Shown here piece after piece: positions 46,864-64,000 of a stretch of DNA of 64,000 bases. Position 1 is the first letter of the stretch. Each line of letters opens with the position of its first letter. Source of the DNA: an uncultured delta proteobacterium (lineage in GTDB: Bacteria > Myxococcota_A > Polyangia > Fen-1088); contig CAVTRY010000021.1 of NCBI GenBank assembly GCA_963737265.1, forward strand, positions 224,001 to 288,000, read 5' to 3'. Under the pieces are notes generated by a model. It was given only the letters and a program-made list of their open reading frames with translations. It was not told where the DNA came from and searched no databases. The position numbers were made by a program, and so were the translations under genes.

Positions 46864-47920
46864 CTACCCCGCCAGCAACCCGCTCACCGCAAGGTCGTAG
46901 TCCGGCCTTGTCCCGTCCCACAATGGCAGGTTCGTGTCCGGCCCAAGGTCGAGTCCGCGGTCATCCGCCCACTCGGCGAGCCAGGTCAGGATGTCGCCAG
47001 CCCATTCGCGCGGAGGCTCCTTGTCCAACGACTTGCCGGCGGGCGACGTGAAGACGAACTCGCCGTCGGCGCCGCGCGCGACCGACCAGCCGCCCTCGTG
47101 AACCATGTGATGGTGGGCGGTACAGAGCATCACCAGGTTGTCGACGCTGGTTTCGCCACCGTGTAGCCAGTGCTGTATGTGGTGGCCATGCAGAAAGCGC
47201 GCGTGAGTGCAGCCTGGAAACGCGCAGCCCTGGTCGCGCAACATCAGGGCCCTGCGAATCGCGGGCGAAATCGTCCGGGTGCGACGGCCGATGTTCAGCG
47301 TCTCGCCGCTGCCGCTGGCCGCCACCACGCCGCAATCGCAGGCCACCCTTCGCAGCGTTTCCGCGGAAACGCGGGTGCCGTCTTCGAGGGTTCCAGCCGT
47401 CGAACCATCCGGACCAAGCACATTTTGATCCACGTGCACCACGACCTGGAAACGCTCGCCGCCGGTTCCGGTCACGGGCTTGCTGGTCAAGAAGGATTCG
47501 GCCATCGCCACGGCGCCGTCCGCACGTGACGGCCAGCCCGCTTCGTCCGACGTTTCCGCGGAAGAGTCTACATGGGAGCCCTCGAAGGGTTCCCATATCC
47601 TCCCGCGATGGTTCGCTGCCGGCAAAGCCGGCAGGCTCCCCACGCTCACATGCCCCTCCTTCTCGGCGTTCACCTCGCGCGCCCGGTCGATCGCGCGCAG
47701 GACCAAATCCGCCTCGTCGGGAGAAAGCACCAATTCCAGCTTCACCATTCCGCCCGGCAACAGTCGTTGGCGCACGGAACGGTCCTCGGGCGCTGGCGCC
47801 GCGTCCGCAGCCTGCGCGCTTCTATAGCCTCGGCAAATCCGTTCGAGCTGCGCGCCAGTCGCGTGCAATGCCAATTCCAGAAGGCGCGCTTCGTTCTCTG
47901 GCGTGGCCACGCGGGTCACT
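46864..47920 (-). pseudogene. DUF222-HNH endonuclease, 5'-truncated
   Basis: TRVATPENEARLL, RRVACD, RDQGCAFPGC, HHIQHW..GG.T..DNLVMLCTAHHHMVH; N-terminal DUF222 part absent. Confidence 0.8.
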
Positions 47921-47998
47921 CGACGGAGAACATGCCGAAGACTATACATCCGTTCAGTTTCCGCGGCAATTGGAATTTCTTCAATTGCGTCCGATTCA

Positions 47999-48031
47999 TT
48001 GTCCTTACCTGACAATGCCTTTCCGTACCCT
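47999..48031 (+). promoter_or_regulatory. Putative WYL-activated promoter of cas4-cas1/cas2, possibly leaderless
   Basis: TTGTCC-ttacc-TGACAA-tgcctttccg-TACCCT, ending 6 nt before ATG 48038; includes the CATTGTC/GACAATG palindrome. Confidence 0.6.
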
Positions 48032-48037
48032 GGTGGC

Positions 48038-49747
48038 ATGGAAGAAAATGCCACGCCCGCCCAGCCCGTCGATGTGCCCGAATTGATCCCGGCGCGGATG
48101 CTCAACGAGTTCGCGTATTGCCCACGCCTCGTCTACTTGGAATGGGTGCAGGGCGATTTCGCGGACAGTGCCGACACGGTCGATGGCCGGCACCAGCATC
48201 GTCGCGTCGACAAGGAATCCGGAAATCTGCCGCCCGCGGATCGCATGCCGGAAGAGCACGACATCCTGCACGCCCGTTCGCTCTATCTCTCGGCGCCACG
48301 GATAGGGCTGGTCGCGCGCATCGATCTTGTCGAGGCCCAGGACGGCAAGGTGACCCCCATCGACTACAAGCGTGGGGAGGCCCCCGATGTTGCCGAGGGT
48401 GCGTGGGAGCCCGAGCGTGTGCAGGTGTGCGCGCAGGGACTGATTCTGGAAGAGAACGGATACGCCTGCGAGGGCGGCGTGATCTACTTCGTGGCCTCGC
48501 ACAAGCGTGTCGCGATTCCCTTCACCAATGAACTGCGGACACGCACATTGTACCTGCTTGCCGAAATGCGCGCGGCCATGGCCGCAAACGAGATTCCACC
48601 ACCGCTCGACGACAGCCCCAAGTGCCCGCGATGCTCCCTGTGCGGAATTTGCCTGCCTGACGAGATCAATCTATTGCGTCTTGCCGATGCCAACAAGTCG
48701 ACGCCGCCCGAACCACGGCGGCTCGTCGCCGCGCGCGACGATGCCTTGCCGCTCTACGTGCAGGCGTCCGGTGCGCGTGTGGGCAAGAGCGGCGAGGAGT
48801 TTGTCGTCACCCCACGCGAGGGGGAGAAGCAGACGGCGCGCATCGGGCAGACATCGCAGGTCGCCCTGCTCGGCCAGGTGCAGATGAGCACCCAGGCCAT
48901 CGAGGCAGCCCTCGGCCGCGGCATCCCGGTCTGCTATTTCTCGTTCGGGGGGTGGTTCTACGGGATGACCACCGGGCTTTGGCACAAGAACGTGGAACTG
49001 CGCCGCTTGCAGTTCCGCGCCGCGGAGTCGCCTGTAACCAGCTTGGCGCTGGCGCGGGCATTCGTCGCGACCAAGATCCGCAACTGTCGCACGTTCCTAC
49101 GCCGCAACGCCGACGACGTCCCCGTCCAGGCCATCGACATGCTTCGCCGTCTGGCCGAGGACACCGAGCAATGTGCCTGCGCCGAATCGCTGCTGGGCAT
49201 CGAAGGCACCGCGGCTCGCGTCTATTTCGAGAACTTCCCGCGCCTGCTCAAGCGCCCGGACAGCGATGGCAACCTGGCTTTCGATTTCACCGGCCGCAAC
49301 CGCCGGCCGCCTCGCGATCCGCTGAATGCCTTGCTGTCCTTGGCCTATTCGCTGCTCGCCAAGGACTTCACTGTCACCCTGCAGTCGGTGGGATTCGACC
49401 CGTTCATGGGCTTCTACCATCGGCCGCGCTACGGCCGGCCGGCGCTGGCGCTGGACCTGATGGAAGAATTCAGGCCGCTGGTCGCCGACTCGGTGGTCCT
49501 TGGAGCCGTCAACACCGGCATCGTCCAGCGCGGCGACTTCGTTGGCCGCGCTGGTGCGGTTTCGTTGTCCGACAGCGGGCGCGGCCGTTTCCTGCATGCC
49601 TACGAGCGCCGCATGGACGAGTTGGTCACGCACCCGGTTTTCGGCTACCGCATTAGTTACCGGCGCGTGCTCGAAGTGCAGGCAAGGCTGCTGGCCCGAT
49701 TCCTGGGCGGTGAGATTCCCGAGTACCCGGGCTTCCAGACGAGGTAG
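48038..49747 (+). CDS. cas1: Cas4-Cas1 fusion
   Basis: Cas4: YCPR, RIDLVE, DYKRG, CPRCSLCGICLP; Cas1: GIEGTAARVYF, NALLSLAY, GFYH, DLMEEFR. Confidence 0.97.
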   Translation: MEENATPAQPVDVPELIPARMLNEFAYCPRLVYLEWVQGDFADSADTVDGRHQHRRVDKESGNLPPADRMPEEHDILHARSLYLSAPRIGLVARIDLVEAQDGKVTPIDYKRGEAPDVAEGAWEPERVQVCAQGLILEENGYACEGGVIYFVASHKRVAIPFTNELRTRTLYLLAEMRAAMAANEIPPPLDDSPKCPRCSLCGICLPDEINLLRLADANKSTPPEPRRLVAARDDALPLYVQASGARVGKSGEEFVVTPREGEKQTARIGQTSQVALLGQVQMSTQAIEAALGRGIPVCYFSFGGWFYGMTTGLWHKNVELRRLQFRAAESPVTSLALARAFVATKIRNCRTFLRRNADDVPVQAIDMLRRLAEDTEQCACAESLLGIEGTAARVYFENFPRLLKRPDSDGNLAFDFTGRNRRPPRDPLNALLSLAYSLLAKDFTVTLQSVGFDPFMGFYHRPRYGRPALALDLMEEFRPLVADSVVLGAVNTGIVQRGDFVGRAGAVSLSDSGRGRFLHAYERRMDELVTHPVFGYRISYRRVLEVQARLLARFLGGEIPEYPGFQTR

Positions 49748-50042: not shown

Positions 50043-50282
50043 CCCGTGATCTCTGACAACCGAAGAATCCCCATGGTTTCGCCCTCGCGAGCGCCGTCGC
50101 GACGCGATTTGCTTCCGTGCCGCTCGCACGCCGACGCCGTCGATAACATAGCGAAATCCGGGCGAAAAGGAGACCACCCTCCATCGGATAGTTCTTCGTT
50201 CACGGTTTCTTGCCGTGTCACGTGGATTCGCTCGCAAACGGCCTCGCAAGTCCCTTCACCCACAGCAGAATTCGCAGGAGCC
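50043..50282 (+). promoter_or_regulatory. CRISPR leader
   Basis: Non-coding 240 bp between cas2 and first repeat. Confidence 0.75.
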
Positions 50283-53200
50283 ATTTCCGCCGTCCTCGGA
50301 CGGCGGCCCCATTGAAGCGGAGGTTACCGCGGTGGGGCTCACAGCCTCATCCATGGGATTTCCGCCGTCCTCGGACGGCGGCCCCATTGAAGCCCTGACC
50401 ACGCACGCGGTTCTCTCCTCGTACGCGCATTTCCGCCGTCCTCGGACGGCGGCCCCATTGAAGCTCATGGCCACGCTCGCAGCTGGGACGAAAACCGAAT
50501 TTCCGCCGTCCTCGGACGGCGGCCCCATTGAAGCTTGCCGGCCAGCAGGCCATCGGCGCCGGCCGGGTTATTTCCGCCGTCCTCGGACGGCGGCCCCATT
50601 GAAGCTCGTTGCTCACCCACGCGGTGAACTTCTTCAGTAGGTCATTTCCGCCGTCCTCGGACGGCGGCCCCATTGAAGCGGCTATAACGAGTCGAGCGAC
50701 AACTCGCACTGGGATATTTCCGCCGTCCTCGGACGGCGGCCCCATTGAAGCGATGAGCGTCGTGAAGAAGAACGGCCCGGTGCCGAAATTTCCGCCGTCC
50801 TCGGACGGCGGCCCCATTGAAGCGTAGATGTCGCCGAGCCCGATCATGACGCCCCTCCATATTTCCGCCGTCCTCGGACGGCGGCCCCATTGAAGCAAGC
50901 CGGCGGATGACCGGAGAAAGTCTCAGAAGCTGGCATTTCCGCCGTCCTCGGACGGCGGCCCCATTGAAGCGACATGACCCGAGCTGTCCTTGACCGCGAT
51001 GCCAAGCTATTTCCGCCGTCCTCGGACGGCGGCCCCATTGAAGCGGTTGACCACGTTCAGGGCCTGGACCGCCTCCGGCCATTTCCGCCGTCCTCGGACG
51101 GCGGCCCCATTGAAGCCAGCTAGCCGTCCACACAGGACTGACCTACTCGTGGCTATTTCCGCCGTCCTCGGACGGCGGCCCCATTGAAGCTTGACCGCTT
51201 GAACTTGTGGAACAAGTCGGTGCAGGATTTCCGCCGTCCTCGGACGGCGGCCCCATTGAAGCCCGCTGGTCTGCTGGTTTTGCCGTCGCGAGATTCGATT
51301 TCCGCCGTCCTCGGACGGCGGCCCCATTGAAGCGCCATGACGTTGCAGATGTGTATTTGACACTCGTCATTTCCGCCGTCCTCGGACGGCGGCCCCATTG
51401 AAGCGTGAAGTCGACAACTTCATTAGGCGAGGACGAACGCGATTTCCCCCGTCCTCGGACGGCGGCCCCATTGAAGCGGCGGGTCACTTGACGGCGTGGC
51501 CGATGCAGTCCCGATTTCCGCCGTCCTCGGACGGCGGCCCCATTGAAGCTTGCGCCTCTCGCGTGCCGCCAGTTACACCAACAAGGATTTCCGCCGTCCT
51601 CGGACGGCGGCCCCATTGAAGCCGCTCCGCCTGCTCCGCTTGGCGCACAAGCGTATCGATTTCCGCCGTCCTCGGACGGCGGCCCCATTGAAGCGCATGA
51701 CGTGGAATTCGCAGAGGCGCTGCTGGCTGAATTTCCGCCGTCCTCGGACGGCGGCCCCATTGAAGCAGCACGTCGTTAGATCGCGCGCCGACAAAAGACG
51801 AGATTTCCGCCGTCCTCGGACGGCGGCCCCATTGAAGCGTCTCGTGGTTTGGTGCCTACGCATCGGGCTCCGCAATTTCCGCCGTCCTCGGACGGCGGCC
51901 CCATTGAAGCCTGGCACGGGGAACGGAGCCGTTTCAGGTTCTCCGGATTTCCGCCGTCCTCGGACGGCGGCCCCATTGAAGCCACATCTGCAAGCGAGCA
52001 TGATCGCGGTTCTTTCTGCATTTCCGCCGTCCTCGGACGGCGGCCCCATTGAAGCCGCACCTGATAGCGCTCGTCCGTTACCGTCGGGCAACATTTCCGC
52101 CGTCCTCGGACGGCGGCCCCATTGAAGCATTTCTCACTAATCTATTCTTGCCAGTGAGAATAGGATTTCCGCCGTCCTCGGACGGCGGCCCCATTGAAGC
52201 GCGGCATCGGCGCCAGCGGCGGCAAGGCGAGCGAGGCATTTCCGCCGTCCTCGGACGGCGGCCCCATTGAAGCTTTGTGATCCAGTCTACAGTGCTACTC
52301 CACCATCCCATATTTCCGCCGTCCTCGGACGGCGGCCCCATTGAAGCGTCGCGCCCCCACCGCCGCATGCCCGCGCAAGCTCCCCGATTTCCGCCGTCCT
52401 CGGACGGCGGCCCCATTGAAGCCGTTGCACGAACACACTAACGCCGCCCGGTTGAGAAATTTCCGCCGTCCTCGGACGGCGGCCCCATTGAAGCTGCGCG
52501 CTCGCGATTTCGGTGTCGCGCAGCTGGTTGATTTCCGCCGTCCTCGGACGGCGGCCCCATTGAAGCATTGTTTCGTCGCTGGTGGCGGACGGTCTGCTGC
52601 ACAATTTCCGCCGTCCTCGGACGGCGGCCCCATTGAAGCTCTCCAGGAACGGCCATTATGGTGCCCTCCGTGCGTATTTCCGCCGTCCTCGGACGGCGGC
52701 CCCATTGAAGCGTGCCGTCGATTTTCTCGGTAATCACGCACTGGCGCGATTTCCGCCGTCCTCGGACGGCGGCCCCATTGAAGCTGATCGCACTGGCGGT
52801 CGAGGCAACGGCGCCTGTAATCATTTCCGCCGTCCTCGGACGGCGGCCCCATTGAAGCCGCAGAGCCGCAGCCCGCATCGCTGGTGCGGCGCCGCCATTT
52901 CCGCCGTCCTCGGACGGCGGCCCCATTGAAGCTTACTCGTTTCTCTCGTGCGAGGTCGGGAAGCCCGGATTTCCGCCGTCCTCGGACGGCGGCCCCATTG
53001 AAGCTGCCGTTGCGAGCGCCCGGTCAGCGTCTCGTTCCCGCATTTCCGCCGTCCTCGGACGGCGGCCCCATTGAAGCGAGTCCTTAATCCAGGCGGTGAA
53101 CCGCGACAGCAGCCGATTTCCGCCGTCCTCGGACGGCGGCCCCATTGAAGCTCGTAGTTGAACATCACCGACGCCGCCTCCACTATGGATTTCCGCCGTC

Positions 53201-55191
53201 CTCGGACGGCGGCCCCATTGAAGCTGGACGAGACGCAGCTTGCGCTGCAACAAAGGCTTCCATTTCCGCCGTCCTCGGACGGCGGCCCCATTGAAGCGGA
53301 TACGTCGTACGCGAACCAACTCCTCGTGGCGGAGATTTCCGCCGTCCTCGGACGGCGGCCCCATTGAAGCGAATTTTCTCCCTTTCGAGGTTGCCAATTA
53401 GAGCGGTATTTCCGCCGTCCTCGGACGGCGGCCCCATTGAAGCGAGGTCACGGGCGCTTGGCTGTCGTACGGGACAACTATTTCCGCCGTCCTCGGACGG
53501 CGGCCCCATTGAAGCTAGGGCAGGTTCTTGGCGGCCTCGTGCGTTCGCAAATTTCCGCCGTCCTCGGACGGCGGCCCCATTGAAGCTTCAAGACGGTCGC
53601 GCATGTCCGGACGCCTGGCTATAGATTTCCGCCGTCCTCGGACGGCGGCCCCATTGAAGCGCAGGCAACCTTGCTGCTGCCCGGCCGGCGGTGGCTATTT
53701 CCGCCGTCCTCGGACGGCGGCCCCATTGAAGCCAACTGACCCAGGCGCAGGCACATCGAATCAAAGCGCTCATTTCCGCCGTCCTCGGACGGCGGCCCCA
53801 TTGAAGCTGCTCGACCGACATCAGCCCAGGCATCGATCAGAAATTTCCGCCGTCCTCGGACGGCGGCCCCATTGAAGCATCCGGATGAGCGCGCCGCCGT
53901 GCTCTTCCGCGGCGATTTCCGCCGTCCTCGGACGGCGGCCCCATTGAAGCTGCACAGGCTGCTCGGACGCTTGGTGTCCAAATGGAATTTCCGCCGTCCT
54001 CGGACGGCGGCCCCATTGAAGCGCGGATATCGTCTGCGTGCTCGATGCGTTCTCGAAATTTCCGCCGTCCTCGGACGGCGGCCCCATTGAAGCATCCGAT
54101 TAGTAGCGGAGCGATTTCGACCACCGCTCCGGATTTCCGCCGTCCTCGGACGGCGGCCCCATTGAAGCTGCCTACGCATCGGGCTCCGCATTGTCGACAG
54201 TTCCATTTCCGCCGTCCTCGGACGGCGGCCCCATTGAAGCCCCAGCCGCCGCATTGCCAAACGGCTGGACGATTCGTTCGATTTCCGCCGTCCTCGGACG
54301 GCGGCCCCATTGAAGCCCGATGACGATTGCCCCCTCGATGGCACTGGGCAGGTTATTTCCGCCGTCCTCGGACGGCGGCCCCATTGAAGCACGAGGCGCG
54401 GGAGGACGCTGCTCAACGATTCGAGCGTATTTCCGCCGTCCTCGGACAGCGGCCCCATTGAAGCGCCGCATGCTTCGCATAGATGACATCCTGCCTGGCC
54501 TTATTTCCGCCGTCCTCGGACGGCGGCCCCATTGAAGCCGTCGTGGATCAACTGCGCGCCCCGCCGGTACGCCGATTTCCGCCGTCCTCGGACGGCGGCC
54601 CCATTGAAGCTCGGATGTCACGCTATTGGCTGCGAGCGCCGGCACGGGGCGATTTCCGCCGTCCTCGGACGGCGGCCCCATTGAAGCCAGTCGGAGCGGG
54701 GCGGGCGATTGGTAGATGGGTTGATTTCCGCCGTCCTCGGACGGCGGCCCCATTGAAGCAGGCAACTGCGGAGAACTCGCCCGCATTCAGAACGAGCAAT
54801 TTCCGCCGTCCTCGGACGGCGGCCCCATTGAAGCAACCGGACGCCCTGCGCGCCGGATACGATCTCGATGATTTCCGCCGTCCTCGGACGGCGGCCCCAT
54901 TGAAGCGGGGCATGGCAGAGCATCGCCAACGAGGATTCGTCATTTCCGCCGTCCTCGGACGGCGGCCCCATTGAAGCTTGGCCACGCCTACCGTCCAGTT
55001 CGCGTGGTGCACCAATTTCCGCCGTCCTCGGACGGCGGCCCCATTGAAGCGAGAGGAAATCCCGATTGCGCTCGCGATTCAGCAAATTTCCGCCGTCCTC
55101 GGACGGCGGCCCCATTGAAGCGGGCCAGTAACGCATGTCTACGGAGAGATCAACTTCGATTTCCGCCGTCCTCGGACGGCGGCCCCATTGA

Positions 55192-56619
55192 CATAGGCAT
55201 TAACCCAATTCCTCCGCAAGATGTTGCTGGAACTTAACGGCGCTGCGTAGACGCTTGCGCGGGACTTGGAGTTGAAGGTGGTCAAGGAATGCCTGCAAGA
55301 AATCGGGAAACCGACTGGCGCTGATCGGCGTGAGCGCCGCGCATACGGTTTGCCAGAGGACGGTCATGAGACGCCATGGCTCGGCTACGACCCGGTGCTT
55401 TGATCGCCTGAGTCCGGCCCTGACGCCTTTCTGCGGCTCGTCGGATGCCGAACCAGTCGAGTTCTCCACAGGGGGGAATAGCCACGTTGGGTGTAGCAAG
55501 TTTGCGGGCGATCTGGGTAAGCAGCATCTTGGCGCAAATCCAGGAATAGACAGTGTCGTTGCGAAAGTTGGGCAGTCGGTCGAGCCCTGCGATGGATTTG
55601 TCCCGCTTGATGTGAAGCTCGATTTGCCAGCGGAGGCCGTATAGTTCCATGACCAGGGCGGCGGTCAGCCGCGACCTCGGTACGGTCGTGAACACCACCA
55701 CGTACTGCGCGGCCGCAAGGGTTTCCTCAGTCACAGACGGACCTTGTTCCCGTCGCGCGCGCTGCCGAGCCTCCTCTGCTTTGTCGGGCGGCAAGAGCAA
55801 CGCGCACAGCCGGCCAGCGATCGCCTTGCCACCCTGCGGATGGACCTCTGCGTACCATTCGCGTGCAACCCCCGGATGCTTGAGGCGAGCCAGCATTCGC
55901 TGAACGTCGAGTAGCTGCCCGTTCATGCCGTACAGAGGAAGCGAGCCACGGTTGTATCGGACCAGTACGTCGGCATCCGCCGCCATGATCGCCGCTATGC
56001 CAGGCGGGTTCGAGCAGCCGCGGTCGCCCATCCACAGTTGTCCCGCCTCGGCATCGAAGTTTCTGAACGTCTCGCCGCCCTTGTCATCCGTGACCTCGAT
56101 TTGCACAGGCCGCAACGTGCTCAAGCGCAGCGCATAGTGAACGCGAGCCGTGGTGCCCTCGGCTCCTGGCCGCGACACCGAAGAGCCGTCCACGATCACC
56201 ACGTCGTAGCCCGCCCATCGCTCCGCTGCGAACGAAGCCTCGGCATCCGTCATCAGCGTCACCAGTCGCGCCAGGTAGGGACCAATGGTTCTCATTCGCT
56301 TGTGCAGCCCGACTGCCGACATCTTGATCACCCCGGCCGCCGCCGCCATCGCCACCGTCACGGCCAGCGACGAGTTCGTCGCCACCTGGTACAGAATCGG
56401 CTGCAGCAAATGTGCCGCCTCGGTCACCTTCGTGCCCATGTGCGCCGGAAACTTCGTGTAGACCACGCCCATCTCGACCGCCAGATCCTCCCATCCGGAT
56501 GGAAGCTGCGCCGCAATCATTGGCCAGTCGCCCGTGGTGCTGTTCTTCGCTATGTTGTCCATCCCGAGCATATGCGGGTGTTCTTGGAGAAATCGCAAGT
56601 TTTTGGGTTAATGCCTATG
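55192..56619 (-). mobile_element. IS4-family insertion sequence inside a CRISPR repeat
   Basis: 17-bp perfect IR CATAGGCATTAACCCAA; 11-bp TSD GGCCCCATTGA at 55181-55191 and 56620-56630. Confidence 0.93.
55282..56598 (-). CDS. IS4-family DDE transposase
   Basis: VDGS, GDRG, YGLRWQIELHIK (Y-R-E-K signature); start codon uncertain. Confidence 0.9.
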   Translation of the reverse strand: MRFLQEHPHMLGMDNIAKNSTTGDWPMIAAQLPSGWEDLAVEMGVVYTKFPAHMGTKVTEAAHLLQPILYQVATNSSLAVTVAMAAAAGVIKMSAVGLHKRMRTIGPYLARLVTLMTDAEASFAAERWAGYDVVIVDGSSVSRPGAEGTTARVHYALRLSTLRPVQIEVTDDKGGETFRNFDAEAGQLWMGDRGCSNPPGIAAIMAADADVLVRYNRGSLPLYGMNGQLLDVQRMLARLKHPGVAREWYAEVHPQGGKAIAGRLCALLLPPDKAEEARQRARREQGPSVTEETLAAAQYVVVFTTVPRSRLTAALVMELYGLRWQIELHIKRDKSIAGLDRLPNFRNDTVYSWICAKMLLTQIARKLATPNVAIPPCGELDWFGIRRAAERRQGRTQAIKAPGRSRAMASHDRPLANRMRGAHADQRQSVSRFLAGIP

Positions 56620-57622
56620 GGCCCCATTGAAGCCATTCAGAGACCCAGTCAGAACCCCTGGTGTCTCCGGTGATTTCCGCCGTCCTCGGACGGCGGCCCC
56701 ATTGAAGCAGCTGGCAGAGGAAACGCCGTCCGGTTGCTACGATGATTTCCGCCGTCCTCGGACGGCGGCCCCATTGAAGCGGGTTAGTTGGCTATTGCCA
56801 CTCCGTAGAATGCGCCATTTCCGCCGTCCTCGGACGGCGGCCCCATTGAAGCTTGGCCACGACGCCGCCACACCCGGAGCATTCTTGGATTTCCGCCGTC
56901 CTCTGACGGCGGCCCCATTGAAGCAGGATTGCCGCCACGCCGTCTTCGCTCATCGTCGATATTTCCGCCGTCCTCGGACGGCGGCCCCATTGAAGCTCCG
57001 CGGCGTGGATACTGCCTGCTTTAGCTGGCAGATTTCCGCCGTCCTCGGACGGCGGCCCCATTGAAGCCTCGGGTGGGGCGCAGGGTGTGCTGGGGCAGGT
57101 CATCGATTTCCGCCGTCCTCGGACGGCGGCCCCATTGAAGCAGAGCGTAGCGTAAGTATTGGTTCGAAAAGTACGGCATTTCCGCCGTCCTCGGACGGCG
57201 GCCCCATTGAAGCTCATTCGTCTGGCGTGGCTACCTGTAAAGACCTGCGAGATTTCCGCCGTCCTCGGACGGCGGCCCCATTGAAGCCACACCTCGCGGT
57301 AGCAATACGCGAGCGCCTCAATATCATTTCCGCCGTCCTCGGACGGCGGCCCCATTGAAGCTAGGTCTCTGGCTGCTTCTCGGCCCCGATCACCTCGATT
57401 TCCGCCGTCCTCGGACGGCGGCCCCATTGAAGCCCCGACCTGGTGCCCGATACGCGGATGCCCTGGAACACATTTCCGCCGTCCTCGGACGGCGGCCCCA
57501 TTGAAGCCACCCCAAGCTGTTTCTGTCCTCGCACGGGCGGCCCATTTCCGCCGTCCTCGGACGGCGGCCCCATTGAAGCAACATTATCCGACAAGGGGCC
57601 GAAGCAAGATCGCCAGATTTCC

Positions 57623-59113
57623 CGCCCATCACGCTTTCGGGTGAGCTTCCGTCGAGGGTCAGTGGCAGCATGAGAAATACAGGATCTGCATGAGGTTGTC
57701 GGGGTTGCGGTAGCCGTGGCCACGCTGGCTGATGCCGCGAACACGTGAATTGTTGCCTTCGAGGGCTGCGTTGGAAAGACCGTGCTTGGCCCAGGCAATA
57801 ACGCCCGACCAATGGCGCTTAATCATGTTCCAGAATCGCTTCAACGAGCCAAGTCGTTGCCAGCGTAATAGGCGACGCCAGTGGTCGAGTGCTGCAGCCA
57901 TACCGACCTCAGTGTGATAGCCCCATACGACGTCGAACTGCTCCTTGAGCAGGTACGCTACCTGGAGACGTCGGTTGAGGCGGAATAGCTCGTCAAGCTC
58001 GCGACGGCGACGCCAGTGAAGACGACGACGCTTCTTGAGCAGGAGGAACTTCTTGCCTCGGATGGCCTCGCGATACAGGCCACCCTTGCGCCAAAATTCC
58101 GCCTTGCGGACCTGGTCGACGGCGTCGGTGAGGTGGTGCTCGATGTGGAATCGGTCGAAGACGAGGTCAGCCTGTGGGGCATGTTCGCAGATGGCGTTGA
58201 TGTAGCCTTGGGCCATGTCCAGCGTGACTGCCACCAGCCGATGCGACCGGCGCGGTCCCAGCTTCACGAAAAACTGCTTGAGTGTTTCCTCCTGCTTGCC
58301 CTCGCCGATCCAAACCACGTGTCCGGCCTCGTGGTCCCAGACGATGGTCAGATACTTGTTCTGGCCTCGGCCGTAGCTGACCTCGTCGACGCCGATGATG
58401 CGAAGCTTGCGATGGAAGCGGCGCTCGACCGCATCCTCGACCCAGTGGGTGATGAGGCGCATGACGGTAGTCCAGTGCAGCCCGAGTTGGCGGCACACGC
58501 CGGCAATGGAAGTCGTGCGGGCACGCCGCAGGACCTCCGCCTCGAACATGTGAGTCATGCGCGAGCCGGTGCGCGCCCACGGGACCTGTTCGACCCGGAT
58601 CCCACAGCGGCGACAGCGCACGCGCCGCAGAGGCGCGATGACGACCGTGCGGATGCCCCAACCGTCGAGATGACGCCAGGCCCGGGCGCAATTCTTGATA
58701 TCCAGCGCGCAGCGCTTGGTCTCTCCACAGCCGGAGCACACAGCCGACTGCCTGGTCGGATACAGGTGTACATGCCAGGAGCCATCGGTACCGCTGTAGC
58801 TGTCGAAACTGACACGCCAGCCGTTTGCAATGGCCAGCTGCAATGCCAAAATACCAGGGACGGACGTTCGTTGGGAGTTCCTCGTGATTTGCATAAACCC
58901 GAAGGATCACCGACGGACGTCCACTTTTCATTTCGCGCACCGTCGCGCGCGGCGACGAGATCCTCGTCGTCGCATAGCAGCACCTGAGCCGCCAGCGAGG
59001 AGGCCGTCACCCGTAGGGCCGGAGCGAAGCGGAGGAGGCGCGAAGCGCCTTGCCGGCCCCCGGAGCGGCGGCTACGCCGTTGCCTTCGCAATCACCCGAA
59101 CGCGCGATGAACC
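57623..59113 (-). mobile_element. ISL3-family IS, copy A (1491 bp)
   Basis: Ends GGTTCATCGCGCGTTCGGGTGA / CGCCCATCACGCTTTCGGGTGA (17/22); TSD AGATTTCC at 57615-57622 and 59114-59121. Confidence 0.95.
57659..58894 (-). CDS. ISL3 transposase
   Basis: CSGC/CRRC zinc finger, IGVDE, LDMAQGY, DRFH, EGNN. Confidence 0.95.
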   Translation of the reverse strand: MQITRNSQRTSVPGILALQLAIANGWRVSFDSYSGTDGSWHVHLYPTRQSAVCSGCGETKRCALDIKNCARAWRHLDGWGIRTVVIAPLRRVRCRRCGIRVEQVPWARTGSRMTHMFEAEVLRRARTTSIAGVCRQLGLHWTTVMRLITHWVEDAVERRFHRKLRIIGVDEVSYGRGQNKYLTIVWDHEAGHVVWIGEGKQEETLKQFFVKLGPRRSHRLVAVTLDMAQGYINAICEHAPQADLVFDRFHIEHHLTDAVDQVRKAEFWRKGGLYREAIRGKKFLLLKKRRRLHWRRRRELDELFRLNRRLQVAYLLKEQFDVVWGYHTEVGMAAALDHWRRLLRWQRLGSLKRFWNMIKRHWSGVIAWAKHGLSNAALEGNNSRVRGISQRGHGYRNPDNLMQILYFSCCH

Positions 59114-61224
59114 AGATTTCCGCCGTCCTCGGACGGCGGCCCCATTGAAGCCAATGCGCTGGGCGCGCAGGTATTCGAGCGTCTTGCATTTCCGCCGTCC
59201 TCGGACGGCGGCCCCATTGAAGCAAGGTGCTTTATCGAGATGCCAGGGTTGCAGACTGGAATTTCCGCCGTCCTCGGACGGCGGCCCCATTGAAGCGCAG
59301 CGCAAAAAATCGTGCTTTACTTCACCGCAGGCAATTTCCGCCGTCCTCGGACGGCGGCCCCATTGAAGCGATACTTCCTGGAAAGTGCCGTAGCTGGGGA
59401 CGGGAATTTCCGCCGTCCTCGGACGGCGGCCCCATTGAAGCTCGCAGGAATTGAACCTAGATCCCAGCGCAGCCACAGATTTCCGCCGTCCTCGGACGGC
59501 GGCCCCATTGAAGCTTGTACTCACGGTCAAACACAGCGCCGCGCCATTGTGATTTCCGCCGTCCTCGGACGGCGGCCCCATTGAAGCACGGGATGCCTGG
59601 AATACGTCCTCGCCGACATCAACGAAATTTCCGCCGTCCTCGGACGGCGGCCCCATTGAAGCACGATCAGCTCCTGATGGGTGGCATCTGATTTACTGAT
59701 TTCCGCCGTCCTCGGACGGCGGCCCCATTGAAGCCGTAGCCGCGCCTGCGTTGACGTAGACACCCTTTGATTTCCGCCGTCCTCGGACGGCGGCCCCATT
59801 GAAGCACCTCTGGCATCTACACGACGTGGTCGCTGCACTGTATTTCCGCCGTCCTCGGACGGCGGCCCCATTGAAGCGCGGCTGACGTCTACGTCGGCGA
59901 CATCCTGACACAGATTTCCGCCGTCCTCGGACGGCGGCCCCATTGAAGCATCCACAGACAGCAACCAGGGGTCAGCAGCGACAACGATTTCCGCCGTCCT
60001 CGGACGGCGGCCCCATTGAAGCCTGGTAGGTGACGAGCGGCGGAGTCGCAGCGGCGCTCATTTCCGCCGTCCTCGGACGGCGGCCCCATTGAAGCCCAAA
60101 TATCAGCAGTGGGGCCGTTGTCACAGGAAGAGGATTTCCGCCGTCCTCGGACGGCGGCCCCATTGAAGCGCTGCGGTCGCGATTCGGCGCCGATGCCGGG
60201 GCGGATGATTTCCGCCGTCCTCGGACGGCGGCCCCATTGAAGCGACATGGACGATGCGAGCGTCGATCCGACGATCGAATTTCCGCCGTCCTCGGACGGC
60301 GGCCCCATTGAAGCTCCCATTCGACCCGAAACATCGCCAGACGTTCCGGCATTTCCGCCGTCCTCGGACGGCGGCCCCATTGAAGCACAAAGGAAACAAA
60401 GGTAGTCGATGGTGTTACCTTGATTTCCGCCGTCCTCGGACGGCGGCCCCATTGAAGCTGGGAAGAGGCCTTGAGTGACGACCGGATCGCCGCCGATTTC
60501 CGCCGTCCTCGGACGGCGGCCCCATTGAAGCGCAGGCAACGAGAGGGTCGTGGTGGGCTCGGTGCAGACATTTCCGCCGTCCTCGGACGGCGGCCCCATT
60601 GAAGCCTTATTCATTTTGGCTGGCATTACCGTAGACCTTGGATTTCCGCCGTCCTCGGACGGCGGCCCCATTGAAGCAAACTCAGCTTCGGCCGATTCAC
60701 TGGTTTCATAGTATTTCCGCCGTCCTCGGACGGCGGCCCCATTGAAGCTGTGGGGGCGAATCGTAGCCATCGAGCAGAAACTGGATTTCCGCCGTCCTCG
60801 GACGGCGGCCCCATTGAAGCCAGGGCCTCTCGGATCAAAGGCAATCTTGAGGCGGTATTTCCGCCGTTCTCGGACGGCGGCCCCATTGAAGCAAGCTGCC
60901 AGGCGGGCTCAACTGCAAGCCAAGGTGCAATTTCCGCCGTCCTCGGACGGCGGCCCCATTGAAGCCGCTTCAGGCTGCCCACCACGTCTGCCAGTCCAGG
61001 TGATTTCCGCCGTCCTCGGACGGCGGCCCCATTGAAGCAATCGCCCCTTTTTCGCGCACGCTGGCCCCGCCATGTTATTTCCGCCGTCCTCGGACGGCGG
61101 CCCCATTGAAGCCCACCGGCCCGAGTTCCGCGAGCATCGACTGGCCAATTTCCGCCGTCCTCGGACGGCGGCCCCATTGAAGCCCGTTTGTGCACATGAG
61201 CGACGGTAGCGGTGCAACATTTCC

Positions 61225-62715
61225 GGTTCATCGCGCGTTCGGGTGATTGCGAAGGCAACGGCGTAGCCGCCGCTCCGGGGGCCGGCAAGGCGCTTCGCGC
61301 CTCCTCCGCTTCGCTCCGGCCCTACGGGTGACGGCCTCCTCGCTGGCGGCTCAGGTGCTGCTATGCGACGACGAGGATCTCGTCGCCGCGCGCGACGGTG
61401 CGCGAAATGAAAAGTGGACGTCCGTCGGTGATCCTTCGGGTTTATGCAAATCACGAGGAACTCCCAACGAACGTCCGTCCCTGGTATTTTGGCATTGCAG
61501 CTGGCCATTGCAAACGGCTGGCGTGTCAGTTTCGACAGCTACAGCGGTACCGATGGCTCCTGGCATGTACACCTGTATCCGACCAGGCAGTCGGCTGTGT
61601 GCTCCGGCTGTGGAGAGACCAAGCGCTGCGCGCTGGATATCAAGAATTGCGCCCGGGCCTGGCGTCATCTCGACGGTTGGGGCATCCGCACGGTCGTCAT
61701 CGCGCCTCTGCGGCGCGTGCGCTGTCGCCGCTGTGGGATCCGGGTCGAACAGGTCCCGTGGGCGCGCACCGGCTCGCGCATGACTCACATGTTCGAGGCG
61801 GAGGTCCTGCGGCGTGCCCGCACGACTTCCATTGCCGGCGTGTGCCGCCAACTCGGGCTGCACTGGACTACCGTCATGCGCCTCATCACCCACTGGGTCG
61901 AGGATGCGGTCGAGCGCCGCTTCCATCGCAAGCTTCGCATCATCGGCGTCGACGAGGTCAGCTACGGCCGAGGCCAGAACAAGTATCTGACCATCGTCTG
62001 GGACCACGAGGCCGGACACGTGGTTTGGATCGGCGAGGGCAAGCAGGAGGAAACACTCAAGCAGTTTTTCGTGAAGCTGGGACCGCGCCGGTCGCATCGG
62101 CTGGTGGCAGTCACGCTGGACATGGCCCAAGGCTACATCAACGCCATCTGCGAACATGCCCCACAGGCTGACCTCGTCTTCGACCGATTCCACATCGAGC
62201 ACCACCTCACCGACGCCGTCGACCAGGTCCGCAAGGCGGAATTTTGGCGCAAGGGTGGCCTGTATCGCGAGGCCATCCGAGGCAAGAAGTTCCTCCTGCT
62301 CAAGAAGCGTCGTCGTCTTCACTGGCGTCGCCGTCGCGAGCTTGACGAGCTATTCCGCCTCAACCGACGTCTCCAGGTAGCGTACCTGCTCAAGGAGCAG
62401 TTCGACGTCGTATGGGGCTATCACACTGAGGTCGGTATGGCTGCAGCACTCGACCACTGGCGTCGCCTATTACGCTGGCAACGACTTGGCTCGTTGAAGC
62501 GATTCTGGAACATGATTAAGCGCCATTGGTCGGGCGTTATTGCCTGGGCCAAGCACGGTCTTTCCAACGCAGCCCTCGAAGGCAACAATTCACGTGTTCG
62601 CGGCATCAGCCAGCGTGGCCACGGCTACCGCAACCCCGACAACCTCATGCAGATCCTGTATTTCTCATGCTGCCACTGACCCTCGACGGAAGCTCACCCG
62701 AAAGCGTGATGGGCG
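61225..62715 (+). mobile_element. ISL3-family IS, copy B (1491 bp, inverted relative to copy A)
   Basis: Same ends and identical 411-aa protein; TSD ACATTTCC at 61217-61224 and 62716-62723. Confidence 0.95.
61444..62679 (+). CDS. ISL3 transposase
   Basis: Identical translation to 57659-58894. Confidence 0.95.
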   Translation: MQITRNSQRTSVPGILALQLAIANGWRVSFDSYSGTDGSWHVHLYPTRQSAVCSGCGETKRCALDIKNCARAWRHLDGWGIRTVVIAPLRRVRCRRCGIRVEQVPWARTGSRMTHMFEAEVLRRARTTSIAGVCRQLGLHWTTVMRLITHWVEDAVERRFHRKLRIIGVDEVSYGRGQNKYLTIVWDHEAGHVVWIGEGKQEETLKQFFVKLGPRRSHRLVAVTLDMAQGYINAICEHAPQADLVFDRFHIEHHLTDAVDQVRKAEFWRKGGLYREAIRGKKFLLLKKRRRLHWRRRRELDELFRLNRRLQVAYLLKEQFDVVWGYHTEVGMAAALDHWRRLLRWQRLGSLKRFWNMIKRHWSGVIAWAKHGLSNAALEGNNSRVRGISQRGHGYRNPDNLMQILYFSCCH

Positions 62716-62723
62716 ACATTTCC

Positions 62724-63483
62724 GGGTCTTCTAGGAATGTTCTGCAATAGGCGCAGATCAGAGCCCTTTTCGGCCGAGATTCTGCGATCTAGCGCAACCG
62801 TGAAACTCGTCTACTCCAGTTTTCCGCAGATGCGGAGGATTTTGAGCTTGAGGTAGTCGCGATCATGGAACCCGTAGGCCTGCTTCTTGATCGTGCCGAC
62901 CACGTTGTTGAAGCCTTCGGCCATGCCGTTGGCCACACGGTGCTGGAAGTAGTTCTCAATCCCGGTCCTTCGTCGTTCGATCGTCTTGAGGACGTGAACG
63001 AGTTCAGGAATGCCGCTCTCCCGCACTTGCCCCTCCCATTCCTTTAGTCGCTTTCGCCCGTCCTTGAGATCCTTCGCTTTGAAGACTTCTCGAAAGGCTT
63101 CCTTGAGTATCTGGCCTGCTGTGAGGTCTGTGTTCAGCGCGAGCAACTCCTTCAGCGAGACGCGTTGCCGGACGCTCAGGCTCTCCTGGGCTCGTAGCAG
63201 AACGTAGCGCTGTCCCTTGATGAGCCTCCGTCCGGCAAGGGACAGTTGCCGCTGAAGGCGGCGGCGGATCTCGTCGAGAGCATCGTGCACGATCTTGCTC
63301 ACGTGGAAGTGGTCGAAGACAATGGCCGCCTTGGGCAGACGTTTCCGCAGCACCTTCACGTAGGGGTCGTGCATGTCCGTCACCGCAACCTTGATCCGCC
63401 TCGCGCGCTGGGGGCCCAGCCACGTGAGGAACCGGCCCACTGCCCGGCCGTCATTGCCGTGTGTCGCGTAGATCACCAGCCGG
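62724..63483 (-). mobile_element. Second, distinct ISL3 element (3' part only; transposase fragment 62811-63482)
   Basis: ISL3-like end GGGTCTTC; TDMHDPY, FDHFH, NGMAEGFNN, AYGFHD motifs. Confidence 0.85.
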
Positions 63484-64000
63484 AAGCTGTCACGGTTGCT
63501 AAAGGCACAGGGGCAGACGGTGAATCGCAAACGGGTGCAGAGACTGATGCGAATCATGGGCATCGAAGCGCTGGCGCCCAAACCACGGACGACCGTGCCC
63601 GCGCCGGAACATACGAAATTCCCGTACTTGCTGCGCCATCTCGCGATCATTCGGCCCAATCAGGTGTGGGCCTCGGATATCACGTACATCCCGACGAGAC
63701 AGGGGCATTGCTACCTGGTCGCCGTGATGGATTGGTACACGCGCCGGGTTCTGTCCTGGCGCATTTCAAACACGATGGACAGCCGTTTTTGCATCGAGGT
63801 CGTGGAAGAAGCTCTTGCGAACTTCGGCTTGCCGGAGATCTTCAACACCGACCAGGGGTCGCAGTTTACCGACGACAACTTCACATCGGTTTTGCTGGAC
63901 AAGGGCGTAAAGGTCAGCATGGACGGTCGCGGCCGATTCATGGACAACATCTTCGTCGAGCGTCTATGGCGGTCTGTCAAATGCGAGGAGGTCTACTTGA
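63478..64000 (+). pseudogene. IS3-family transposase (OrfB/rve) fragment, running off the window
   Basis: VNRKRVQRLMR, PNQVWASDITYI, FNTDQGSQFT, DNIFVERLWRSVK; no upstream part or IR. Confidence 0.9.

Follow-up and report, generated by a model that had tools for sequence, protein, structure and literature searches.

ISL3 insertions at one position of a type I-G CRISPR repeat and the target preference of the elements

The CRISPR array and its insertion sequences

The analysed window, 64,000 nucleotides of an uncultured delta proteobacterium, contains a type I-G CRISPR array that continues past its end and is preceded by cas3g, cas8g2, cas7g (csb1), csb2, a fused cas4g/cas1g and cas2. The type assignment is given by the NCBIfam models TIGR02621, TIGR04106, TIGR02570, TIGR02165, NF049935 and TIGR01573, each of which scored over its cut-off. 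The repeat is 36 nt long (ATTTCCGCCGTCCTCGGACGGCGGCCCCATTGAAGC), and the count of 115 repeats takes in one that is split by element D as well as the degenerate last repeat. Five insertion events involving four IS types interrupt the array, and the IS-bearing repeats (68, 82 and 111 of 115) lie in its leader-distal part. Near the leader, two spacers agree at 35/35 positions with chromosomal genes of this assembly, a hint that CRISPR interference is not acting. The features are:

50283-64000, continuing outside the window to about 65372, plus strand: type I-G CRISPR array; leader at 50044-50282, downstream of cas2
55181-55191 and 56620-56630: 11-bp duplication of element D, GGCCCCATTGA
55192-56619, minus strand: element D (IS4-like, 1428 bp), interrupting repeat no. 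68 in its 3' part; DDE_Tnp_1 transposase ORF 55282-56598
57615-57622: 8-bp target-site duplication to the left of A, AGATTTCC, two nucleotides of spacer and repeat nucleotides 1-6
57623-59113, minus strand: copy A of the A/B ISL3 element (1491 bp), preceding repeat no. 82; transposase encoded at 57659-58894
59114-59121: duplication to the right of A, AGATTTCC; an intact repeat (59116-59151) starts with the last six of these nucleotides
61217-61224: left duplication of B, ACATTTCC
61225-62715, plus strand: copy B of the A/B ISL3 element (1491 bp), preceding repeat no. 111; transposase encoded at 61444-62679 (411 aa)
62716-62723: right duplication of B, ACATTTCC, which is also the left one of element C
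62724-64000, continuing to window-equivalent position 65047 (C21:289047), minus strand: element C, a second ISL3, defective; transposase remnant 62811-63476
63477-64000, continuing to about 64378, plus strand: IS3-like element nested in C, 902 bp, with rve and HTH_21 domains

Copies A and B are 100% identical across 1491 bp, and their only gene encodes the transposase. A Pfam search made on copy B, and carried over to the identical copy A, found DDE_Tnp_ISL3 (PF01610, E = 3.9e-61, aa 167-403) and HTH_Tnp_ISL3 (PF13542, E = 2e-16, aa 102-152). The terminal inverted repeats are imperfect, with 17 of 22 positions matching when GGTTCATCGCGCGTTCGGGTGA is compared by eye with the reverse complement of the opposite end. 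An 8-bp duplication is the rule for the ISL3 family in ISfinder; identical 8-mers flank nine of the 15 two-ended A/B copies in the genome, and the six copies without them have presumably been rearranged. By domains, duplication, inverted repeats and A/T-rich targets, A and B are members of the ISL3 family. They resemble other ISL3-family elements that prefer A/T-rich targets in having a DDE_Tnp_ISL3 transposase, an 8-bp duplication and A/T-rich targets. One such element is IS31831, described as preferring A/T-rich regions (PMC1590026). Circular intermediates have been described for ISL3 elements, for which a copy-out-paste-in pathway is presumed (bioRxiv 10.1101/2023.06.07.543989). A and B probably transpose in the same way, with which the eight identical full-length copies described below are compatible.

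Element C is also an ISL3 element, with a DDE domain (ORF 62811-63659, minus strand; PF01610, E = 1.6e-60), an 8-bp duplication and termini (GGGTCTTCTAGGAATGTTCTGCAAT and GGTTCTTCTAGGAATGTTCTGCAAT) that are inverted relative to each other. It is broken up by the nested IS3-like element and by a deletion, about 245 bp being absent at the nested-element site compared with the copy of C on contig C13. Of the two copies of C, one is located in the array. The IS4-like family of element D has one of its ten copies in the 3' part of a CRISPR repeat, and its 11-bp targets are GC-rich.

A shared register and a re-used target

A, B and C share one cut register, with 8-bp duplications of the form NNATTTCC, that is, two nucleotides of spacer followed by nucleotides 1-6 of the repeat. 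The initial annotation had proposed such a fixed repeat position for all three ISL3 elements, and we confirmed both its reading of the A and B duplications (AGATTTCC and ACATTTCC, the last two spacer and first six repeat nucleotides, cut identically in both orientations) and the complete repeat that it had placed downstream of A. Its third element, said to abut the right duplication of B and to be a different ISL3 from A, does start directly after that duplication, at 62724; its far end is now bounded at 65047, outside the window, where ACATTTCC and the remainder of the repeat follow, and its transposase shares only about 29% identity with that of A and B. ACATTTCC is present three times around B and C and, since the third lies beyond C, all three ISL3 events fell in one register and a single 8-mer served both B and C. 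By our own arithmetic, three events among the roughly 115 ATTTCC sites of the array would place two on one site with a chance of about 0.026, a low value that counts against the explanation by ordinary transposition given below. Judged by its decay, C probably inserted earlier than B, in which case the ACATTTCC target of B would have had the end of C in place of the downstream repeat.

The ISL3 cut points (spacer -2, repeat +6) differ from the repeat borders, where Cas1-Cas2 acts. The cut lies 2 bp into a 9-bp G+C stem; the best perfect stem at the repeat is 8 bp or more. The proposal that the repeat serves as a renewable landing pad stands insofar as the 8-bp duplication regenerates ATTTCC and B and C re-used one 8-mer, but the same would hold for any motif-specific IS.

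Genomic copies and the target motif

BLAST of A/B against the genome gave 23 rows, corresponding to 13 full-length copies, two split copies and six fragment rows. The array contains two of the 15 copies with both ends, and 13 lie outside it. Eight full-length copies out of the 13 show 100% identity, suggesting a recent burst. All nine clean duplications have a central AAA or TTT (GGAAATCT, ACATTTCC, GGAAATGC, GGAAAATG, GGGAAAGG, AGAAACCT, CTATTTTC, CAAATCTG and GCCAAAAC), in keeping with the duplication length of about 8 bp and the AT-rich targets that the initial annotation had given for ISL3. At least four A/T are found in eight of the nine, compared with 33% of the 8-mers of this genome (63% G+C), and for the six copies that have no duplication the AAA/TTT run recurs in 10 of 12 flanking 8-mers.

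Two non-CRISPR copies show the register seen in the repeat: one on contig C15 has GGAAATGC on both flanks and one at C21:89217-90707 has it on the right flank. The right flank of the copy at C21:65486 is CGGAAATC. GGAAAT, which is ATTTCC on the other strand, occurs at 3 of the 13 non-array copies versus 3.8% of A/T-run sites (P = 0.012), and GGAAATNN is a candidate for the favoured target form of the A/B elements. No stem of at least 7 bp lies beside any of the seven duplicated sites outside the array, where the best perfect stems are 3-6 bp. Repeat features beyond the short motif do not appear to be needed. Of the three modes of recognition originally suggested, sequence fits the data, a hairpin is absent at all seven non-CRISPR sites, and a bound Cas protein finds no support in cuts that fall off the repeat borders.

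The non-array copies are largely in dispensable DNA. They are located within or next to IS91 transposase genes (C13, C15, C23/C12), an IS66 transposase gene and an AIPR abortive-infection gene, and also at the end of an OmpA-like gene and at an RCC1-repeat gene. Two pairs of copies, one of them outside the array, are less than 8 kb apart, against a random mean of 0.25 pairs (P = 0.023).

Ordinary preference, directed insertion and their meaning

Of the 3405 GGAAAT sites in the genome, the array without its IS elements accounts for 119 and other repeated DNA for 255. The array therefore holds 3.5% of these sites genome-wide and 32% of those within array plus repeated DNA; for the broad A/T-run motif the corresponding shares are only 0.2% and 2.6%, figures that count against an ordinary preference. 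Against the raw 3.5% share, the array is over-represented, with two of four GGAAAT-type A/B events (binomial P = 0.0068), or three of five when element C is added (P = 3.9e-4), in counts that are small and, being of surviving copies, mix insertion rate with selection. When array plus repeated DNA is taken as the null, about 0.47 array hits are expected and two or more have P of about 0.08, which is not significant but hardly reassuring; this "tolerated DNA" null was picked after the data were seen, and of the three non-array GGAAAT hits only that on C15 touches repeated DNA. The initial annotation had set two findings on the distribution of the copies, taken together, against homing. The first, that most copies lie at unrelated AT-rich 8-mers, is what 13 of the 15 copies do. 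The second, that the array is hit only in keeping with its motif share, depends on the null: the array is over-hit relative to 3.5% and not clearly over-hit relative to 32%. Homing to CRISPR arrays as a special behaviour is not borne out, the repeat harbouring a minority of the A/B copies and the register recurring at GGAAATGC where there is neither repeat nor hairpin.

The pattern looks like an ordinary target-site preference meeting a dispensable array with more than 100 copies of the motif. Motif preference and a tolerant array probably suffice to explain the insertions as ordinary ISL3 transposition. The transposase would pick 8-bp targets with a central A/T run, favouring GGAAATNN, in a 63% G+C genome. 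ATTTCC is the sole invariant motif of this kind in the repeat-spacer unit, so that any hit on a repeat would be forced into one register, and a staggered cut would duplicate two nucleotides of spacer plus ATTTCC. Insertions would survive in the array, which has about 119 motif copies and would bear interruption at no cost; the other surviving copies likewise are mostly in other IS elements and accessory genes. The duplication remakes the motif on both sides of an element, which let B and C settle at a single 8-mer. Regional tolerance or local hopping may add to the clustering. The share of copies in the array would then be set by survival, not by insertion rate.

A preference directed by the repeat itself, in which some feature beyond the hexamer (candidates are cruciform or hairpin extrusion by the cut, transcription of the array or R-loops along it, and a bound Cas protein) raises insertion several-fold, is unlikely. 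The raw over-representation, the position of the cut within the stem and the single register of three events from two elements about 29% identical all favour it. However, most copies are elsewhere, the GGAAATGC sites show the same register without a repeat or a long stem, the enrichment weakens when tolerance is taken into account, and the IS encodes only a transposase. If C is the older element, B also inserted where the end of C had replaced the downstream repeat. Given so few events, the counts are still compatible with a few-fold extra preference for the repeat.

It is quite improbable that local hopping or attraction to IS ends was the main cause, a chance array hit having seeded the others, with A and B, which are 3.6 kb apart, related as daughter and parent, and with B (or C) drawn to a resident ISL3 end. 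The three array events would then not be independent. The identity and proximity of A and B suggest such a course, as do the direct abutment of B and C, the overall clustering (the non-array pair, 7.2 kb apart, is also inverted) and the location of the C21:65486 copy 29 bp into the remnant of an ISL3-like terminal repeat starting GGCTCTTCTAG. Yet six other copies are also 100% identical, so that parentage is unreadable from sequence, the motif rule is still needed for the exact register, and our literature search found no report of ISL3 elements targeting IS ends. It also found none of a GGAAAT-centred ISL3 preference in a high-G+C genome, or of its coincidence with a CRISPR repeat.

In public collections, the junction pattern had no matches in metagenome or genome contigs, the A/B IS end had none in metagenome contigs, and the A/B transposase had no relatives in genome contigs. 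In 40 relatives only fragments turned up. The one other genome with the identical repeat (G001) has 110 identical, uninterrupted repeats and a fragment but no intact copy of an ISL3 element, and so weighs neither for nor against. Public runs with the IS gave short contigs ending at the IS ends. The array insertions can be argued to be real transposition events because their 8-bp duplications are intact. Misplacement of IS copies by repeat mis-joining in a metagenome-derived or draft assembly (25 contigs, 7.6% estimated contamination, array-IS junctions bridged by no public contig) is very improbable, given perfect element-specific 8-bp duplications in three elements, unique spacers on either side, restoration of exactly one repeat and spacer on IS removal, and 13 full-length copies resolved within contigs, as long reads would give.

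A close parallel is found in the CRISPR (direct-repeat) locus of the M. tuberculosis complex, where IS6110 is described as inserting repeatedly, often in the repeat, with up to two copies per array that drive later rearrangements (PMC7708916). There too a multi-copy IS splits the repeat in two with a short duplication, but as described IS6110 belongs to the IS3 family, makes 3-bp duplications and enters several repeat positions as well as spacers, unlike the ISL3 elements with their 8-bp duplications and one register in three of three events. Prophage integration into CRISPR repeats similarly has a mobile element take the repeat as attachment site and interrupt the array; it differs in using a phage integrase, site-specific recombination and one dedicated att site, whereas the DDE transposase here has many non-CRISPR targets. 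IS1397 and ISKpn1 in BIMEs and ISPpu9 and ISPpu10 in REP sequences always enter a short chromosomal repeat, present in many copies and able to form a hairpin, at one given position, and they are nearly exclusive to it, unlike the A/B elements, of which 13 of 15 copies lie outside the repeat and whose seven duplicated sites there have no hairpin. Tn7-like CAST elements, which carry cas genes and choose targets by guide RNAs, share the link between transposition and CRISPR, but the A/B element encodes a transposase only and inserts into the array DNA itself.

A short motif together with a multi-copy, dispensable locus can mimic homing, and a duplication that regenerates the motif allows elements to stack. 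CRISPR arrays gather IS elements, which calls for caution in array annotation and in reconstructing spacer order. If the repeat is hit above its motif share, transposons would provide a route to array decay in addition to prophages that integrate into repeats and IS elements that insert into cas genes. One could go further, to a rather improbable reading in which ISL3 elements have, at the 5' end of the type I-G repeat, a safe harbour that renews itself: two distant lineages would share the GGAAAT register rule, the stem or array transcription would lift the hit rate above that of the hexamer alone, and the target would be remade, so that elements pile up and the older part of the array is progressively cut off. 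If true, this would amount to a mild, transposon-driven erosion of CRISPR memory, to the benefit of mobile elements.

The type I-G locus and the insertions in its array

The window covers C21:224001-288000 of an assembly of 6.55 Mb in 25 contigs, with 63.4% G+C. It contains a complete type I-G cas operon, whose 3' limit lies at window position 50043. The genes cas3g, cas8g2, cas7g/csb1, csb2, a fused cas4g/cas1g and cas2 are found upstream of the leader, all scoring above the NCBIfam cut-off. Inside the operon, between csb2 and cas4g/cas1g, there is an antisense ORF of 413 aa (46864-48105, minus strand); its product has a DUF222 and an HNH endonuclease domain, and it may be a mobile HNH gene. 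The array, which follows a 239-bp leader, is the only one in the genome with this repeat and contains 115 repeats, counting one that is split and a degenerate last one.

The array and the elements inserted in it
50283 to about 65372, beyond the window end: CRISPR array, 36-nt repeat ATTTCCGCCGTCCTCGGACGGCGGCCCCATTGAAGC
55192-56619: element D, IS4-like, 1428 bp, DDE_Tnp_1 domain, inserted towards the 3' end of repeat 68; 11-bp duplication GGCCCCATTGA
57623-59113, transposase on the minus strand: ISL3 copy A, with AGATTTCC on either side
61225-62715, plus strand: ISL3 copy B, with ACATTTCC on either side
62724 to window-equivalent 65047: element C, a second ISL3, starting directly after the right duplication of B

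Copies A and B are 100% identical across 1491 bp, and their transposase carries DDE_Tnp_ISL3 and HTH_Tnp_ISL3 domains. The transposase of C shares about 29% protein identity with that of A and B. For the two copies, their flanking duplications and the third ISL3 at 62724, every detail observed in the initial annotation is right. That annotation also proposed that insertion regenerates the target. When the contig is read past the window, the end of C is followed by ACATTTCC and then by GCCGTCC..., the rest of the repeat. Because ACATTTCC is thus present three times, B and C must have used one 8-mer, with one element inserted into the duplication left by the other, and the regeneration of the target is upheld. 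An origin of the B-C adjacency by deletion between separate insertions through 8-bp microhomology is thought unlikely, since it would take both an illegitimate deletion and a pair of spacers that end in AC.

We infer that C probably predates B, since an IS3-like element of 902 bp is nested in it and it has lost about 245 bp at the insertion point relative to the copy on contig C13, whereas B is identical to seven further genomic copies. The C13 copy is the only other C in the genome (99.1-99.5% identical). If C came first, the target of B no longer had the rest of the repeat behind it. The nested element (63477-64000, continuing to about 64378; rve and HTH_21 domains) has more than 20 near-identical copies in the genome.

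The array acts as a sink for IS elements in general. Five insertion events have occurred in it (A, B, C, D and the IS3-like element inside C), involving repeats 68, 82 and 111 of the 115, all within the leader-distal 40%. Element D, which is unrelated to the ISL3 elements, has ten genomic copies, one of them in the array, all with G+C-rich 11-bp duplications.

Two spacers at the newest end of the array perfectly match genes elsewhere in the assembly. The second from the leader (50394-50428) has a 35/35 match to an M13-peptidase gene (C11:263462-263496) with TTG upstream, and the fourth (50535-50569) a 35/35 match to an ammonium-transporter gene (C22:204712-204746) with CTG upstream. The PAM of type I-G is TTN, which the TTG of the C11 match fits. 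These perfect self-targets hint either that interference is inactive or that the assembly mixes strains; in the first case the array would be dispensable. Several spacers (56996-57032, 57433-57471, 57511-57543, 59151-59187 and 59229-59261) match contigs of up to 17 kb from four soil-metagenome runs (X1-X4) with 0-3 mismatches. These matches are flanked by unrelated sequence, with an upstream flank that fits TTN where readable; they probably mark protospacers on mobile elements that co-occur with the host.

Target sites of the ISL3 copies elsewhere in the genome

A BLAST search of the IS against the genome returned 23 rows. They contain 13 copies of full length and two that are split but keep both ends, while six of the rows are fragments. 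Nine of the 15 two-ended copies have perfect 8-bp duplications: GGAAATCT (A), ACATTTCC (B), GGAAATGC, GGAAAATG, GGGAAAGG, AGAAACCT, CTATTTTC, CAAATCTG and GCCAAAAC. A central AAA/TTT run is present in all nine. The copy on contig C15 has GGAAATGC at both flanks, and the same 8-mer borders another copy, C21:89217-90707, on its right side. Both have GGAAAT at positions 1-6 of the 8-mer, which is the register of the repeat, and no CRISPR sequence was found near either site. A third copy outside the array has GGAAAT in its flank CGGAAATC. Three of the 13 non-array copies have GGAAAT, a hexamer that accounts for 3.8% of A/T-run sites (P=0.012); two of the 13 have it in the exact register (P=0.085).

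The repeat site has a perfect stem of 8 bp or more. At the seven duplicated sites outside CRISPR, no perfect stem within 35 nt exceeds 6 bp. Aligning the flanks of the genomic copies, a check proposed in the initial annotation, recovered the same GGAAAT register with neither CRISPR nor hairpin. Within the repeat-spacer unit, ATTTCC is the sole invariant A/T run with that context. With the motif present at non-CRISPR sites that have no stem, the fixed register in the repeat can be attributed to a short sequence rule.

The remaining six two-ended copies have no target duplication. Exchange of flanks between copies was rejected as the cause, as no left 8-mer equals any right 8-mer; the missing duplications point to deletions or other rearrangements at the IS borders. 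The copy at C21:65486 is placed, as its left flank shows, 29 bp inside a remnant of an ISL3-like terminal repeat (GGCTCTTCTAG...).

Three or four of the non-array copies are within or next to IS91 transposase genes. The others are within or next to an IS66 transposase gene, an AIPR abortive-infection gene, the part of an OmpA-like gene that encodes the C-terminus, or an RCC1-repeat gene. The AIPR gene is disrupted at GGAAAATG by an A/B-type copy (C17:105771-108559; locus L036, C17:103001-111000), which is itself split by an insertion of about 1.3 kb.

Frequency of insertion into the array

Of the 3405 GGAAAT sites in the genome (both strands counted), 119 (3.5%) belong to the array once its IS elements are left out. 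Against this raw share, the presence in the array of two of the four GGAAAT-type A/B events gives P=0.0068, and with element C added (three of five events) P=3.9e-4. Surviving copies are, however, filtered by selection. Other repeated DNA, 7.5% of the genome, has 255 GGAAAT sites, and the array accounts for 32% of such sites within the array and repeated DNA combined. An estimate based on tolerance, whose rate comes from the single non-array GGAAAT insertion touching repeated DNA (the C15 copy), predicts about 0.47 array insertions, with P of about 0.08 for two or more. The copies are also clustered: two pairs are less than 8 kb apart (random mean 0.25, P=0.023), and one of these pairs is outside the array. 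Given the clustering, A and B may not be independent events.

Taken together, the target motif, tolerance and local clustering are enough to account for the array insertions. A real few-fold preference for the repeat may exist, and would be compatible with such small numbers. The initial proposal that these elements home to CRISPR repeats is supported only in part: recognition of a sequence motif and regeneration of the target were borne out, but a homing specific to CRISPR was not, with only two of the 15 two-ended copies lying in the array.

Occurrence in other genomes and known parallels

A protein search of a public genome contig collection found no relatives of the A/B transposase, and the exact IS end was absent from public metagenome contigs. 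The junction pattern of IS end, duplication and repeat gave no match in either the metagenome or the genome contigs. A DNA search of 40 relatives found no intact IS, only fragments of at most 84-88% identity in six genomes. In G001, which belongs to the same genus, an array of 110 identical repeats runs without interruption; its ISL3 match, however, is only partial, with no intact element. The array of G021, also compared, has 76 repeats of a related sequence beginning CTCTCC; one of them contains a 1688-bp insertion in its 3' CCCCATTG part (contig C3, 9781-11468; locus L035). The IS itself occurs at 100% identity in the four soil-metagenome runs, all from one study. The contigs are short and stop where the IS does, at 57623 and 59113. 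No contig crosses a junction with the array, and one carries the junction of the C15 site. Array sequence in these runs was confined to isolated spacer matches.

No description of ISL3 targeting CRISPR repeats was found in the literature searched, with subscription journals, ISfinder/TnPedia and supplements outside its coverage; the supplements to PMC7708916 and PMC10359306 may record where IS elements lie in arrays. An ISL3 element is mentioned in PMC8547433, but not in arrays. A preference for A/T-rich targets is described for the ISL3 member IS31831 (PMC1590026). Two other papers supply parallels, namely IS6110 in the direct-repeat locus of M. tuberculosis for an IS in a CRISPR array (PMC7708916), and IS insertion into cas genes together with prophage integration into repeats (PMC10359306). 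The ISL3 insertions in this array are a new instance of a type of event already known.
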